Source: a virus
Taxonomy: Duplodnaviria; Caudoviricetes
Length of the DNA: 34,540 nt
Virus record (IMG/VR): IMGVR_UViG_3300005612_000017
Coordinates: 1 to 34,540 of that record
Reading direction: 5' to 3' (one strand)
This document shows positions 27,676-34,540 of the stretch, one piece after another (position 1 is the first letter of the stretch; every line of letters begins with the position of its first letter). A program made the translations under genes and the position numbers. The notes below the pieces were generated by a model. That model was not told the DNA's origin, ran no database searches, and worked only from the letters and a program-made list of their open reading frames with translations.

Positions 27676-28986
27676 ATGACCGCATACGAAGCAATGGTCG
27701 AATTAGAGCGCAAGCGAGCGGAGCTTGATCACGCCCGCCGCGCACAGACGCCTGGCGCTCCGGAGTACGCGACTGGGGCAATCAACGAGCTTTGGCCCAC
27801 GCCTGCGCATTTTGTCTCCCAGCTTGGCATTCCCGGAGCGTCAGATGTTGCCGAGTACCAGGCGGCGCGTAGCGAGGGCCTAGGTGTTCTGCCTGCGCTG
27901 GGACTTGCCGCGCTACCCTTTGGTATCGGCTACGGCGTGAAGGGCGCTCTGAAGGCCGCAGAGCCCATGCTACGTGGTGGGCCTGAGCTTCCGGGCATCA
28001 ATCCGGAGATGGCCGCGTTACAAGCTGCACTGGGCGGCGATCCTGCCACGCAGACCAGCGCGCTGATGGGGGTGAAGCGCATACCTAAGCTATATCACAG
28101 CGCCCGTGGTGGGCCTGAAGCTATCGAGAGCATTAAGGAGAAAGGATTCACACGCGGGGTGAGTGCTGAAATAAAAACGCCTGGGACATCCTTATCTGAA
28201 GATCCCTACATGAGCGTTAAGTATTTTGCCCCCGGCTCTGCGGACCAGTTTTTTCCCGCAGACACACGTTCACACGAGGACCGCTATTCCACGGTAGCCG
28301 TCGAGCCGAAGGGGTTGCGGGCGCAGGATGTACACAACCTACCGCCGTCTGCCTATTTATCAGGCGACCTACCGAAAGACCCACAAGCTTTCTACCGCAA
28401 GCCAGGGGCTTTCTACCATGAGGCTGAGACATTCGCCCGCCGCGAGCCCGGAACGCTGGAGCACACGCCGCCGCCGCCGCCTGATGTTAGCGTTCGTGAC
28501 TTAACTGCGGAAGAATGGGCCAGGGTGAAAGGGACACAGCGTGCCAACCGACAGTTTGAAGGCGGCGCCAATAGCATCTTTGCTGCGGCGGCTGAGCTTC
28601 GCAGATTCGGCAATCTTCCGGGCAAGGCGGTAGTTGTTGATATGGCCGAGGGGCTAAGAAAGCTTCGCGGCGATAAGGCGACTTTTTCCCGAGCTATGGA
28701 TAGAGTCGCCGCTGGTCTTCGCTCCCTTGATATTTATGGCGATGACCCAGGGCAAGCGATACTACATCAAGTCTATGGTAAGACGAAAACCAGGACGATG
28801 CGAGCGGCAGCTTTCAAAATGGGAACCCTCATGGAGGCGATGAATAGCCGGGGTCTCGCTCCCGACGCGGTCGACAACAGCTACCGTCAATATATCGGCT
28901 TCCGTAACTACCTTTATGATGAGCTGCAAGCGGGGGCTGCTACAGGACGGAAGCCAAAGATGGTTGCGCCAGGGCGCTTGCCGTAA
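27676..28986 (+). CDS. Last virion-module protein with putative ADP-ribosyltransferase-like domain
   Basis: KLYH...SIKEKGF...GTSLSEDP..S..Y...YHEAETF; N-terminal hydrophobic segment. Confidence 0.5.
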   Translation: MTAYEAMVELERKRAELDHARRAQTPGAPEYATGAINELWPTPAHFVSQLGIPGASDVAEYQAARSEGLGVLPALGLAALPFGIGYGVKGALKAAEPMLRGGPELPGINPEMAALQAALGGDPATQTSALMGVKRIPKLYHSARGGPEAIESIKEKGFTRGVSAEIKTPGTSLSEDPYMSVKYFAPGSADQFFPADTRSHEDRYSTVAVEPKGLRAQDVHNLPPSAYLSGDLPKDPQAFYRKPGAFYHEAETFARREPGTLEHTPPPPPDVSVRDLTAEEWARVKGTQRANRQFEGGANSIFAAAAELRRFGNLPGKAVVVDMAEGLRKLRGDKATFSRAMDRVAAGLRSLDIYGDDPGQAILHQVYGKTKTRTMRAAAFKMGTLMEAMNSRGLAPDAVDNSYRQYIGFRNYLYDELQAGAATGRKPKMVAPGRLP

Positions 28987-28987
28987 C

Positions 28988-29040
28988 AAGCCTTCCCAGG
29001 ATGGGCGGGGAGCCAATAACGGCTCCCCCTGGGAAGGCTT
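28988..29040. terminator. Large nested hairpin between the convergent late and early units
   Basis: aagccttcccagg/cctgggaaggctt (13-bp inverted repeat) enclosing ggggagcc-aataac-ggctcccc. Confidence 0.7.
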
Positions 29041-29311
29041 AGTAGTTCTGGTTCCTGATAGCCCGAATCAACTCCCGATGCCGGCGTTCGGTATCCTTCC
29101 GGTTCCGCTCAATCTGGTTCCGTTCGCGGGCTTGGGCTTGGTCTTGCTCGACAAGATGTCCGAGGGAGAACTGGTTGCGCTGTTGTGGGCTGATACCACC
29201 AGCCCAATTAGCGTCATAGCCAGACCCGTAATAAACCGGTGCCGCCACGGACGGCAGTGATGCGAACGCGGCGATCAGCGCGGCGATAACAAGTGCTTTG
29301 TTTGTCTTCAT
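29039..29311 (-). CDS. Exported small protein with signal peptide
   Basis: MKTNKALVIAALIAAFASLPSVAA; gagga RBS. Confidence 0.7.
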   Translation of the reverse strand: MKTNKALVIAALIAAFASLPSVAAPVYYGSGYDANWAGGISPQQRNQFSLGHLVEQDQAQARERNQIERNRKDTERRHRELIRAIRNQNY

Positions 29312-29342
29312 GGTCTAATCCTCTAGTCAGGGTTGTTGGTGT

Positions 29343-29486
29343 TTAGCAGTTTTCCTGCAGGTGGCAGGTGTCGCACCCGTAGCGCGTGCGCTCCTTTGGC
29401 CCGAGTAGACGCTGGCTTCCGAAGCACGAGTAGACTTTCGTGGTCTTCGGCCACAGACGCTCAAGCAGGCTCTTTATCAGCTTCAT
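29343..29486 (-). CDS. 47-aa Cys-rich protein
   Basis: My translation: MKLIKSLLERLWPKTTKVYSCFGSQRLLGPKERTRYGCDTCHLQENC; ATGA overlap with the upstream gene. Confidence 0.55.
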   Translation of the reverse strand: MKLIKSLLERLWPKTTKVYSCFGSQRLLGPKERTRYGCDTCHLQENC

Positions 29487-29710
29487 GACAGCGCCGCCAC
29501 TGCGCCGACCAGTAAGTAGATCGGGGCAAAGAGCACTGCGCAGATTGTCGCTACCGTCGCCGTCGCACAGAGCGCCCCACAGGGCTGTGATGCCTTCCGC
29601 GGCTTCTCCAGGTAGTCCAGTGGCGGGCGGCTCCGAAGCTTGGCGGTGACGGTTGGGCGGAGCCTGGTGCCGTTGCCATGGAGGATTCGTGATTTTGTAT
29701 AGTCAGTCAT
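29483..29710 (-). CDS. Small membrane protein
   Basis: Hydrophobic C-terminus ATICAVLFAPIYLLVGAVAALS; overlaps neighbours. Confidence 0.55.
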   Translation of the reverse strand: MTDYTKSRILHGNGTRLRPTVTAKLRSRPPLDYLEKPRKASQPCGALCATATVATICAVLFAPIYLLVGAVAALS

Positions 29711-29924
29711 GATTATTTTCTTGGTCCTCTCTATGGAATCGGCATTGGTATGTTCCGAGCGGCAGCTTTCGCAGGACGGCCAGGAGCTTCTTCAGCATTT
29801 CCGCCTCCTCGTTGGAGATCCATGCGCGAAAATCCGTTTTTCCTGCCGCGCGCTGGCGTTTCTTGAATTCCCTTTGACGCTGCGCCCCGTCCTTGGGGCT
29901 GGTGTTGTCTGCTTTCATACCCAT
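29703..29924 (-). CDS. Small DNA-binding protein (RHH-like), candidate Aca regulator
   Basis: AQRQREFKKRQRAAG..DFRAWIS.EE..ML; directly downstream of acr-like genes. Confidence 0.55.
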   Translation of the reverse strand: MGMKADNTSPKDGAQRQREFKKRQRAAGKTDFRAWISNEEAEMLKKLLAVLRKLPLGTYQCRFHREDQENNHD

Positions 29925-29955
29925 TGTGTTATTGACTCCGGTTTGATGGCTTCCC

Positions 29956-30153
29956 TCACCGATCTGTCCATTTGTCGTCTTCTTTTACGCTCAGAACTGC
30001 CCCGTTCTCCGCCTCAATTTTCAGAACCGTCCTCCGGAACATCTGGTTCCGAGATGCGGCGCGTTTTGCCGCACTAAGGTTTTTGGCTTCGATGGACTGT
30101 CCGTCTCGGTGGCTTCGTGCGCTCGGTATTTCGCGGATAATGTAGGTTGACAT
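29956..30153 (-). CDS. acrIF9: Anti-CRISPR AcrIF9 homolog
   Basis: Colinear with AcrIF9 as I recall it: YII.E....S.R.G..IEA..LS.AKR.AS..Q.F..TV..IE..NG..L..KED..W. Confidence 0.85.
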   Translation of the reverse strand: MSTYIIREIPSARSHRDGQSIEAKNLSAAKRAASRNQMFRRTVLKIEAENGAVLSVKEDDKWTDR

Positions 30154-30183
30154 CGCGTCGCTGCTCCGGTTGGTTACTTGCGT

Positions 30184-30213
30184 TGCGCCCCGTCCTTGGG
30201 GCTTTTTGTTTTT
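30184..30213 (+). terminator. Antisense-oriented terminator-like hairpin; its 20-bp core is repeated at 29881-29900
   Basis: tgc-gcccc-gtcctt-ggggc-tttttgttttt. Confidence 0.5.
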
Positions 30214-30219
30214 CCTAAT

Positions 30220-30489
30220 TTATGCCGCTGCTGTTTTTGCCATGTTGTAGAGCGGGTGGCATGGGAGCAATCGGACGGTATCGCTTTCAAAGTAGTCCGT
30301 CATGATGTCGCTTCCATTTTCCACTTTCAGCGCGTTAACCATCTCGGCGGGGAATGCGCTCTTTTTGGGCTGGATTTTGATCAATTCGGGGTTGACACCT
30401 TCAATCCATGGCCCTGTCATGACCCGGATTCCGCAGCGCTTTTTGTTGATTGTCAAAGTTGCCCTTTGGCCTTTTCCGCTGATCTTCAT
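30220..30489 (-). CDS. Uncharacterised 89-aa protein, candidate anti-defence protein
   Basis: Lies between two acr homologs with a near-identical leader; motif VENGSDIMTDYFESD.V...P.HPLY. Confidence 0.75.
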   Translation of the reverse strand: MKISGKGQRATLTINKKRCGIRVMTGPWIEGVNPELIKIQPKKSAFPAEMVNALKVENGSDIMTDYFESDTVRLLPCHPLYNMAKTAAA

Positions 30490-30523
30490 TTGGTTTGCTC
30501 CGGTTGGTGTTTCTCTTAACTTG
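30487..30523 (-). repeat. 37-bp leader repeat, copy B
   Basis: caagttaagagaaacaccaaccggagcaaaccaaatg; 35/37 identical to 30762-30798. Confidence 0.9.
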
Positions 30524-30764
30524 CGCGCATTTCATCTGTTACGGCGACCACATTATTTACCGCGATCCATTCGTGGTCCCCTTCTGTCAGGGGTGCGCCG
30601 TCGCAATCCAGAAAACTGGACTCCCCGCCGGATTCTGCGACTCCGTAAACATCCGAGGCGAATTGGTAGCTGGTCCCGTCATCTTCTCCGTTCAGCTCAA
30701 ACCAGTATGTGGTACTCTCGTTTGCCCAATTATTGTCTTTGCTCATATAGGTTGCGGTGGTCAT
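30516..30764 (-). CDS. acrIF18: Anti-CRISPR AcrIF18-like acidic protein
   Basis: Y.SKD.NW....TTYWF..NGE...GV...G...DCDGAP...T..M.A matches AcrIF18 as I recall it; very acidic. Confidence 0.7.
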   Translation of the reverse strand: MTTATYMSKDNNWANESTTYWFELNGEDDGTSYQFASDVYGVAESGGESSFLDCDGAPLTEGDHEWIAVNNVVAVTDEMRAS

Positions 30765-30798
30765 CTGGCTTGCTCCGGTTGGTGTTTCTCTTAACTTG
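30762..30798 (-). repeat. 37-bp leader repeat, copy A (predicted transcription start to ATG)
   Basis: caagttaagagaaacaccaaccggagcaagccagatg. Confidence 0.9.
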
Positions 30799-30804
30799 GA
30801 TACT

Positions 30805-30832
30805 ATTATACAGTGTTACGCGTAACAGTCAA
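30805..30832 (-). promoter_or_regulatory. Near-consensus sigma70 promoter of the acr operon
   Basis: TTGACT-16 nt-TATAAT on the minus strand. Confidence 0.8.
30814..30827. promoter_or_regulatory. Perfect 14-bp palindromic operator in the promoter spacer
   Basis: TGTTACGCGTAACA. Confidence 0.75.
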
Positions 30833-30835
30833 GCT

Positions 30836-31027
30836 TTATCTTGCCTCCAAGCTCCGGTTGTTCCACAAGTCCATTGCCATTGCTAGCGTGATTTCCACTT
30901 GCCGATTATCTTTCGGTTGCGGCGAGGGGCCAAAAACCCCGCATTGCAGGCATTCTGCATACGGCTCGATTCGGTTCGGTTCGCGTAGCCGATTACTGGC
31001 GCAAAACGGGCAAGGTTTGAGTTTCAT
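30836..31027 (-). CDS. Lar-family restriction alleviation protein
   Basis: LKPCPFCA...CLQCG...AMDLWNNR. Confidence 0.8.
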   Translation of the reverse strand: MKLKPCPFCASNRLREPNRIEPYAECLQCGVFGPSPQPKDNRQVEITLAMAMDLWNNRSLEAR

Positions 31028-31029
31028 TG

Positions 31030-32064
31030 CTAGCTTGCCATCGCCACCATTTCCCTCAGCTCCTTCGTCTGATCGTCCGGCAGGGCTGCTTCGGCGATCA
31101 AGTCGCTAAGCACGCCTAACGCCTCCTCGTCGGCGGCTGCGCGGATTTCATCGGCGAATTCAGCGAAGGACTTAGGCTCTGGCGTAGATGCCACCGACTC
31201 CGGCTCGATGACTTCCTCGTGGCTCCCCCGGCGCTTGCGGAATCTACCCGCTTGGGTGACGGACGGTCGGTCGTTTTCATAGCTCCAGCCGTGCTGCTGA
31301 GCGTCGAATTCAGAGCCGTCAACATCGCGCCAGGTCTCGGAATGTCCGCTCCCATTCCATCTGGGCCACTCGCTATTCTCTTTGGCGTCCTCCGCCGGCT
31401 CCTGCGCGTCTTGCTCATGGGAGGGTCGGCTGTCCGCCTCTCCGAGGGCCTTGGCCTTGGTCATGATCGAGGCCGCGCCCCGGGAGGGTGCTTCCTGCTC
31501 GATGACGGTGGCATTTTCATAGATAAAATGGGCGTCATCCTCGTCGCTGATACCCGAGAACCCAAAGGCGTAGCGGATTCCTTCCTTCGCAGTCTTGTGG
31601 CGTAGCATTCTCCTGGTGTGCTGCTTCCACGGCTCGGTGGCTCGGAAGCACTCTTCTAGATATTCCGTGATCACAATCGGGTGTGATCGGTCTTTGCGAT
31701 AGATTGTGCAGGTGCACGACTCAAGCTTTCCGTCCGAGTCGTTACCGTACTCGAAACTCATTCCATCAAATTCCGGGCGTCTTTGGGCGAGATTCAGAAA
31801 GCCGTCGATTCCGACCGTGGGGGTAATGCCACCACCTCGTCCAGGAAAGGCGTGGATCTCCCGAGTAATCGGGTTCAACTGGTATTGCTCCGCTACCATC
31901 AGGAATGCGGCGAGTTGTTCATTAGTCGACTTCCCGCCGGGCATCACAGTCGCCTTGATGGTATCGGCAAAGGCTGTGGGTTCCATGTCGAAACGATTGG
32001 CCATCTTCGCCAGCAGGGACTTTTTTGCCGGGACTTGCTGTAAATCTTTGACTTCGTTACTCAT
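31030..32064 (-). CDS. bet: Single-strand annealing recombinase (lambda Bet/RecT family)
   Basis: FLMVAEQYQLNPITREIHAFP, VGIDGF, CTIYRKDRSHP, PWKQHTRRMLRHK, AFGFSGI.DEDDA. Confidence 0.9.
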   Translation of the reverse strand: MSNEVKDLQQVPAKKSLLAKMANRFDMEPTAFADTIKATVMPGGKSTNEQLAAFLMVAEQYQLNPITREIHAFPGRGGGITPTVGIDGFLNLAQRRPEFDGMSFEYGNDSDGKLESCTCTIYRKDRSHPIVITEYLEECFRATEPWKQHTRRMLRHKTAKEGIRYAFGFSGISDEDDAHFIYENATVIEQEAPSRGAASIMTKAKALGEADSRPSHEQDAQEPAEDAKENSEWPRWNGSGHSETWRDVDGSEFDAQQHGWSYENDRPSVTQAGRFRKRRGSHEEVIEPESVASTPEPKSFAEFADEIRAAADEEALGVLSDLIAEAALPDDQTKELREMVAMAS

Positions 32065-32251
32065 CGTCTTGATTCCTCGTTGTGGTTGGATTGCCGCGCG
32101 CTTTGATCAGTGTGGCCCATTGCTCCTGGCACCGGTGGCAGGTCACATTGTCGATCACGGACGTCAATCGAAGCCCTGCGTCGGCGCGGTCGTGCTCGCC
32201 GCAGAGGGTGATTGTTCCTGAGCCGCTCGGACTGAGCAAGTGCACTACCAT
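32057..32251 (-). CDS. Small Cys/His metal-binding protein
   Basis: H...TLCG...VTCHRC; aggag RBS. Confidence 0.65.
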   Translation of the reverse strand: MVVHLLSPSGSGTITLCGEHDRADAGLRLTSVIDNVTCHRCQEQWATLIKARGNPTTTRNQDDE

Positions 32252-32263
32252 TTTCGTCTCCTA

Positions 32264-32451
32264 CAGGTCTTGAAAGAGATGGCGGTTACTTTTACCGCCA
32301 AGCCAGCTCGCCACACATTTCTGCGGTATCTCCGCGCCAGCCCAGTTGTCCGTACAAGGAAACTGCGGCAGCGTTACCTGACTACCAGGCCACCCGTTCA
32401 CTCAGGGGCGAGCGCCCCACGCCAGTTCTTGAAATAGGTACTTGCTGGCTT
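32264..32451 (-). ncRNA. Candidate multi-hairpin RNA/attenuator in a 280-bp intergenic region
   Basis: Outer helix AAGCCAGC/GCTGGCTT, four inner hairpins, then hairpin TGGCGGT/ACCGCCA plus TCTCTTT. Confidence 0.45.
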
Positions 32452-32498
32452 TCTTCGCTTCCTCGGTCATGCACATTCTCTGACAGCGACATAGTACG

Positions 32499-32526
32499 AT
32501 ATTACCGCAATCCGGCAGGAATGCAA
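32499..32526 (-). promoter_or_regulatory. Possible sigma70 promoter
   Basis: TTGCAT-16 nt-TAATAT. Confidence 0.35.
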
Positions 32527-34062: not shown

Positions 34063-34304
34063 GACGGATCAGCCTCCTCATATTTGACGATGCAGTAGAT
34101 CGCGAGGCTGTAAGCGTCGGATAGCTGGCGCAGCGCCTTCCGGGCCTCGGCAGGGCGCAGATCGTCCGTGCGGCTAAAGAGTTCTGCTACGGTGCAGCTA
34201 AGCATGAGTTCCTCCTGCTCGTCGCATGCCATCTCCAGGCGCTGATGTTCATCCACCTCGCGCTGATACTCGGCGAGTCCGGGGTGATCTGGTAATTTAT
34301 TCAT
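34059..34304 (-). CDS. Hypothetical 81-aa protein
   Basis: MNKLPDHPGLAEY...; gagg RBS; the Ala/Thr extension in the ORF track is an off-frame reading of the repeat. Confidence 0.6.
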   Translation of the reverse strand: MNKLPDHPGLAEYQREVDEHQRLEMACDEQEELMLSCTVAELFSRTDDLRPAEARKALRQLSDAYSLAIYCIVKYEEADPS

Positions 34305-34540
34305 TTGACGCCTCATGTGGTAGGTCGGCGCTGCCGTAGCCGCTGCCGCTGCCGTAGCCTCTGCCGCTGCCGTTGCCGCTGCCGTTGCCGATGCCGTAGC
34401 CGTAGCCGTAGCCGCTGCCGTAGCCGTCGCCATCGTAGCCGCCGCTGCCGTCGCCGCTGCCGTAGCCGCTGCCATCGTAGCCGCCGCTGCCGCCGTAGCC
34501 GTAGCTGCCGCTGCCGGCGCTGCCGCCGCTGCCGTAGCCG
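34297..34540 (-). CDS. Gly-X (GYGSGDG) repeat protein, C-terminal part (truncated by window edge)
   Basis: GGC alternating with TAC/AGC/GAC/AAC, ending GYGSADLPHEASNE*. Confidence 0.7.
   Translation of the reverse strand, partial: GYGSGGSAGSGSYGYGGSGGYDGSGYGSGDGSGGYDGDGYGSGYGYGYGIGNGSGNGSGRGYGSGSGYGSADLPHEASNE

Follow-up and report, generated by a model that had tools for sequence, protein, structure and literature searches.

The minus strand of an uncultured marine phage genome carries what is probably a swappable cassette of four small genes, in which homologs of the anti-CRISPR proteins AcrIF18 (g1) and AcrIF9 (g3) are accompanied by a further gene (g2) and by a candidate repressor (g4), predicted to act on a palindrome in the cassette's own promoter. 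Observed directly were the gene order, both homologies, a palindrome that sits between the −35 and −10 boxes and travels with the g4 family, and the exchange of cargo among related phages. The window, i.e. the whole stretch of DNA that was analysed, is a complete virus record of 34,540 bases.

A sequence-only reading had placed four small co-oriented genes behind a TTGACT/TATAAT promoter, and this was borne out when the minus-strand ORFs and the promoter were located. The genes are g1 (30516-30764; 82 aa), g2 (30220-30489; 89 aa, basic), g3 (29956-30153; 65 aa) and g4 (29703-29924; 73 aa), all on the minus strand and each preceded by a CCGGAG ribosome-binding site; g4 trails g1 and g3 on the same strand after a 31-nt gap. 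The promoter is of the sigma-70 type (TTGACT-16 nt-TATAAT, 30805-30832, minus strand; 11/12 consensus matches) and is the best of three promoter-like sites in 28500-32500, where shuffles average 1.5 sites; it is conserved over 10 aligned loci, a conservation partly due to selection on the pattern. Directly upstream lies a Lar-family restriction-alleviation gene (30836-31027, minus strand; Pfam PF14354, E 1.4e-9, above the cut-off), which is absent from the syntenic sister phage L039, where RecT runs straight into the promoter. A contig of another study spans 30011-30809 with zero differences, so the order across the repeats of the cassette is not an assembly artefact. As for the operon drawn earlier at 29703-30832, the four genes behind the promoter stand, but the transcript may continue past g4, since the next gene overlaps the g4 stop codon and no terminator-like site was found after g4 before 29256. 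Beyond g4, with no terminator detected, come three more small genes (29039-29710, minus strand), whose products measure 75 aa (hydrophobic at one end), 47 aa and 90 aa (with a signal-peptide-like start); their homologs trail the g4 homolog in L039, so they may share the g4 transcript.

The proposed likeness of g3 to AcrIF9 was confirmed over its full length by a PDB sequence search, in which all five matches at E ≤ 1 (177,635 sequences) were AcrIF9, the best being 6w1x_I (E 2.1e-14, residues 2-62) with about 32 of 62 columns identical as counted by eye. Nine conserved AcrIF9 positions have been described, namely Y5, K31, R32, A34, K36, Q38, W54, K58 and R63 (PMC8034650), as has a clamp formed by F39/F40/H41 (PMC7264359). 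Six of the nine positions are identical in g3 (Y5, K31, R32, A34, Q38 and K58); K36 is changed to R and W54 to V, and R63 falls on a one-residue gap. Compared with AcrIF9 overall (PDB 6W1X/6VQV; PMC7264359, PMC8034650), the likewise basic g3 protein also keeps R17, L27 and F40, and differs by K36R, F39M, H41R, W54V and the R63 gap. The basic DNA-tethering patch (K31, R32, K36, K58, R63) accordingly reads K, R, R, K and a gap with an adjacent K61 (four of five in register), the clamp reads M/F/R, and at the Cas7f/Cas8f interface Y5, R17, Q38 and F40 are kept and F39M, H41R and W54V are changed. Most DNA-tethering residues thus appear to be kept and the Cas7f face to be partly changed, the W54V, clamp and R63 differences all lying at or near functional surfaces. 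Judged by its sequence, g3 is very probably active against some type I-F system. Pfam, PHROGs and NCBIfam named neither g1 nor g3.

AcrIF18 inhibits type I-F (and Serratia type I-E) CRISPR-Cas. A profile of g1 and four database relatives retrieved 15 viral loci, including L032-L036, in which a short AcrIF18 form is followed by a small conserved gene that we take to be Aca5-like; where L034 has this Aca5-type gene, the g1 cassette has a non-HTH gene instead. BLASTP aligned g1 to L034:4001-4210 with 31/63 residues identical (49%; pairwise E 4e-15), the local score of 131 comparing with a mean of 28 and a maximum of 56 in 2000 shuffles. Since the L034 protein is itself identical, as judged by eye, to a published AcrIF18* sequence (PMC7648647, supplementary file 10, row 5), the AcrIF18 likeness proposed for g1 holds. 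Like AcrIF18* of the acrIF18-aca5 loci of Serratia prophages, g1 is the first gene behind its promoter, has the common N-terminal part and TTYWF core, and is acidic (16 D/E versus 2 K/R; the computed pI sits at the method's 4.05 floor, as does that of the reference). It differs by a longer C-terminal part and by an 11-residue insert, which is common to several environmental homologs and absent from the four published rows shown (PMC7648647); the C-terminal third of g1 is also divergent. PDB sequence searches with g1 and its profile gave nothing meaningful. On balance, g1 is somewhat more likely than not to be active as an anti-CRISPR. Elsewhere, at L025:280-1085 (plus strand), an AcrIF18-like domain of the insert-bearing kind is fused to the end of a 172-aa protein and followed by an XRE HTH gene, behind a promoter with its own palindrome, which suggests an acr-aca-like locus.

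The spacer between the −35 and −10 boxes is filled by a perfect 12-bp palindrome, GTTACGCGTAAC (30815-30826, no strand), which the sequence-only reading had missed. It is the only match to GTTACNNGTAAC in the window; perfect 12-mer palindromes number eight there, GTTACGCGTAAC among them, so the weight rests on its position and on its conservation in comparison. A protein-first search with g4 found three non-self cassettes, namely L039/L042/L043 (one phage), L044 and L045, in each of which the g4 homolog is the last of two to three small genes and the cargo differs. The palindrome is present in both of the cassettes whose promoter is on the contig. L039 has the same flanks as the window, a promoter 85% identical, two unrelated cargo genes and a g4 homolog, and its palindrome carries a double change that keeps the symmetry; in L044, which has a different genomic context, the palindrome is identical and a single other cargo gene accompanies the g4 homolog, and the L045 contig, which does not reach the promoter, carries a g4 homolog together with two cargo genes. 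Such compensatory variants include a GGCC core (L039) and a CCGG core (L057).

Promoter-first scans with the four central bases free returned 18 viral and 12 genomic loci, to which a CGCG-fixed scan added four (34 loci), and 1.3 kb at each was searched with a g4 profile made of only the five protein-search sequences. Downstream of G/C-core palindrome promoters, a g4-profile match at E ≤ 0.05 was seen in 9 of 12 cases (one being the window's own copy), compared with 0/18 at E ≤ 1 for non-palindromic look-alike promoters; none of three A/T-core palindrome promoters had a g4-like gene. L047 and L055 gave a match only at E 0.12, and L079 was missed by the profile, though a like protein is visible. 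When the free-core loci were grouped by eye, with the own copy and L053 and L064 (short flanks) dropped, 3/7 palindromic groups were positive versus 0/12 (p = 0.036), or 4/7 when the E 0.12 group was counted (p = 0.009). A search of the open literature for the palindrome string returned only unrelated papers. Its presence in the cassette's own promoter and its co-travel with the g4 family make g4 a likely Aca-type autorepressor, and from these comparisons we expect with good confidence that g4 represses through the palindrome. One positive locus lies in a Methyloprofundus chromosome (L070:2072-2541, minus strand), where the promoter is followed by a 76-aa orphan and the g4-like gene, just ahead of an integrase-like 330-aa ORF; the viral contigs L052 and L063 have promoter and regulator nearly as in L070, with other cargo.

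The earlier designation of g4 as a candidate Aca can be kept in so far as the palindrome travels with its family, but not in the sense of an HTH Aca, and no solved Aca was matched. Pfam and NCBIfam found no HTH family in g4, the PDB gave no match at E ≤ 1 from a library including Aca3 and 7xi5, and the family profile found no Aca at E ≤ 10 in a PDB sequence search. The likenesses that were found are profile matches below cut-off, to UrfF (NCBIfam NF041430, 'plasmid repression protein F'; E 3e-7, 30 bits versus a cut-off of 100), phrog_536 (E 3e-5) and the BacA/YjfI N-terminus (NF050185); UrfF was matched in this way by 12 of 16 g4 family members. For UrfF together with plasmid no paper was found in the open literature, and the available portion of the BacA report (PMC10948618) mentions neither DNA binding nor a palindrome. 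Four relatives of g4 were found among 1.84 billion representatives. The conserved core covers about residues 9-53, with no conserved C-terminal extension. A monomer model of modest confidence (pLDDT 66) shows two helices and no strand, although the stretch between the helices may be a strand; the model had no Foldseek match, and the ESM Atlas led to clusters that are unnamed or called 'Repressor'.

Across 401 class-level and 301 order-level genomes, the g4-type domain was found in 10 distant matches, mostly as the N-terminal domain of longer proteins. In five of these chromosomal homologs the 90 nt upstream contain a related palindrome, which in one case takes the same −35/−10 position; the other five have none. 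The upstream palindromes suggest that the domain likely reads GTTAC/GTAAC-type repeats and that its use is broad, not acr-only. In L082 and L089-L091 the domain forms the N-terminus of YjfI/BacA-like chromosomal proteins, and paired TTACATGTAA-type repeats lie upstream in L090.

Among described Acas, the HTH families (Aca1-12) do not accommodate g4, a predicted DNA-binding protein with no HTH and no known-Aca homology; PMC12658196, in its available part, covers HTH Acas only. Aca13 of Streptococcus elements is a non-HTH protein that uses a helix to bind an inverted repeat located between −35 and −10 (PMC12282945), and g4 resembles it in lacking an HTH and in the position of the palindrome; Aca13 is, however, a Firmicute family, and the g4 profile misses AcrIIA32 (8YE6, which contains Aca13) at E ≤ 10. 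Aca14, an RHH Aca of Pasteurella multocida, resembles g4 in being a small basic non-HTH protein, last in a small anti-defence operon, with a long N-terminal helix and an inverted repeat at the promoter core (PMC13551039). The Aca14 operator is an A/T-rich 8-4-8 repeat overlapping −10 (PMC13551039), whereas the predicted operator of g4, GTTACGCGTAAC, lies between the boxes, a distinction drawn from the published probe/operator description, and the conserved part of the g4 family ends after one C-terminal helix (about 50 aa). The g4 family therefore likely lies outside Aca1-14 (outside Aca14 by description), and its domain also appears to head ordinary chromosomal regulators. Among the matches listed for Aca15/Aca16 and anti-CRISPR in the open literature all were unrelated, and no description of the g4-palindrome regulator-operator pair was found in the open-access papers searched.

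In the proposed mechanism, host sigma-70 polymerase would fire the strong promoter upon DNA entry. In the type I-F Csy complex, the g3 protein would attach to Cas7f and block target pairing, and its basic patch would tether non-specific DNA. AcrIF18* acts before target binding, DNA mimicry having been proposed as unproven (PMC7648647), and the acidic g1 protein may likewise act ahead of the target-DNA binding step, perhaps by mimicking DNA. As g4 accumulated it would dimerise on GTTAC-GC-GTAAC and block polymerase, so that the cassette would be expressed in a short burst. Repeated leaders and a leftover g4 start likely mark recombination points for cargo gain and loss, adjoining the phage's RecT/exonuclease genes.

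These repeats lie on the minus strand. Leader/RBS copy 1 (38 nt, before g1, 30761-30798) and copy 2 (before g2, 30486-30523) are 95% identical, and copy 3 (before g3, 30162-30174) is an exact match to their 13-nt core, which has three exact copies in the window, all inside the cassette. Between g2 and g3, a 23-nt stretch (30181-30203) is 96% identical to the 5' coding stretch of g4 (29878-29900); its frame reads like the g4 N-terminus and then stops, and it has no start codon, as if g3 had been inserted before g4. A GC hairpin within it (30187-30202) is terminator-like on the plus strand; it might also be read as an RNA anti-CRISPR or as a g4 RNA-binding site, but a duplicated g4 start doubling as a plus-strand terminator is the simpler reading. 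Exchange of cargo is also visible between phages, as L039 has flanks, promoter and g4 start in common with the window and no common cargo. In two runs of one study (X7 and X8), contigs join the end of the Lar gene directly to acrIF9, skipping 696 bases, and in other contigs the promoter leads into different DNA that is followed by g4; these contigs are separate and short, so the full order of this co-occurring variant, which is without g1 and g2, is inferred.

We consider it less likely that g4 instead autoregulates early genes of phages and mobile DNA in general, with acr genes as recent incidental cargo; the repression mechanism would then be unchanged, but new anti-CRISPRs could not be traced well through the family. 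When the 17 cargo proteins of other g4-family cassettes were compared with Pfam and PHROGs, none matched an anti-CRISPR family, a null that is weak because these libraries, blind to most Acrs, also miss g1 and g3. Together with the finding of a full AcrIF9 homolog in no other fetched locus, this means that the regulator-acr link rests on one phage lineage. A general role would also fit the presence of the domain at the head of YjfI/BacA-like proteins, the sub-cut-off UrfF matches across the family and the joining of acrIF9 to the Lar gene end in X7/X8 without a g4-type promoter in front. Against it, every cassette found has only small unannotated genes behind a strong promoter, which is the usual anti-defence look, and known Acas too regulate non-acr genes (PMC13551039).

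Divergence of g1 and/or g3 to the point where the target is lost or changed, so that the cassette does not block type I-F in its host, appears improbable. The interface changes W54V, F39M and H41R in g3, the insert and divergent C-terminal third of g1 and the absence of g1 and g2 from the co-occurring variant are what would be expected from such a loss, but an AcrIF9 homolog with only 33% identity still inhibited the P. aeruginosa system (PMC8034650), to be compared with the 32 or so of 62 columns in g3, and both ORFs are intact with strong ribosome-binding sites, g1 having kept its acidity and core motifs. We give very little credence to g4 being a ribbon-helix-helix-type antitoxin with an upstream small gene (e.g. 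g2) as the toxin: weak tblastn matches beside RelE/ParE genes on plasmids (E 0.03-0.3) point to it, as does an Atlas lead (0.89) to a cluster in which 11% of the members are MazE-like, yet neither g1-g3 nor the other cargo matched a toxin family, no conserved C-terminal extension is present in g4, and the partner genes change completely between cassettes, unlike those of a fixed toxin-antitoxin pair.

The remaining cassette gene, g2, belongs to a widespread but uncharacterised phage family, with eight close relatives (52-80%) and a wider family, marked by the motif N..D...DYFE, whose members occur in early regions and inside large proteins. No family member had a convincing Pfam match, PDB sequence searches with g2 and its profile gave nothing meaningful (a profile match to 8ye6 at E 0.074 was rejected as noise), the ESM Atlas gave nothing usable, and no paper on the motif was found in the open literature. 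A g2 model (pLDDT 77) had no fold match in the PDB at E ≤ 0.001, which does not prove a new fold; among viral structures the best match was an uncharacterised phage protein (E 2.4e-3), and VIA gave a best Z of 3.5 over 48,161 chains. Neighbourhoods were compared at 10 of 11 full-length non-self loci, L098 being left out as a near copy. In two of the 10 (L095 and L100) the g2 homolog is followed by one small gene and then a Pfam-confirmed HTH gene, which in L100 has Aca3 (E 7e-4) and 7xi5 as its best PDB matches; L096 has a like layout with an HTH-like gene that lacks a Pfam match, and the remaining seven have no HTH-gene layout. By this guilt by association, g2 is a candidate third counter-defence protein, at somewhat less than even chances. 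A second small family trails g2 homologs (L095:2971-3613, L096:2807-3455 and L094:2962-3419, plus strand), with 62-67 aa, an 'LDR.YLR.CAVYR' motif and no Pfam match, and is a candidate anti-defence gene.

Operons of the acr-aca kind have been described before, and g1 and g3 add members to established Acr families. The novelty lies in the candidate regulator, which links a small DNA-binding domain, widespread but unstudied, and a specific predicted operator of 12 bp to acr homologs. A more ambitious reading, which we offer only tentatively, is that a new Aca family begins with g4, having a minimal non-HTH DNA-binding domain and the operator TTGAC-N-GTTASSSSTAAC-N4-TATAAT and that g2 also represents a new counter-defence family without a solved fold match, g2 being flanked by two acr homologs and preceding Aca-like HTH genes elsewhere. 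With an operator so defined, phages and gammaproteobacterial elements could be mined for new anti-defence genes by the promoter alone. Should g4 act as the predicted repressor, it would be a third non-HTH Aca type and would provide a DNA-level search handle; found under a g4-type regulator were g2 and 17 other cargo proteins, of which 16 have no Pfam family above the cut-off. Specificity could be tested directly with the AcrIF9 variant, whose Cas7f interface is naturally altered, and with the AcrIF18 group that has the long insert.

With regard to the phage itself, Pfam and PHROGs place terminase, portal, scaffold, capsid and ejection genes on the plus strand and exonuclease VIII, HNH, RecT/Bet and Lar genes on the minus strand; it is tailed, and probably short-tailed because ejection-protein genes are present. 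Of 13 listed runs containing sampled words of 29400-31100, the eight with at least half of these words (three possibly the source) are marine sediment or marine metagenomes, and no RNA run was among those listed. In a host search the head genes had no DNA-level match in phage records and RecT matches were below 60% and of mixed taxonomy; g1, g3 and g4 had no match in annotated phages. The last gene of the ejection region (27676-28986, plus strand; 436 aa, no family match) has only its first part in common with L039, whose version has another C-terminal region, which suggests that this part is a swappable injected domain. At the end of the record (34226-34540, minus strand) lies a low-complexity repeat whose frames read Gly/Ser/Tyr-rich or Ala/Thr-rich.
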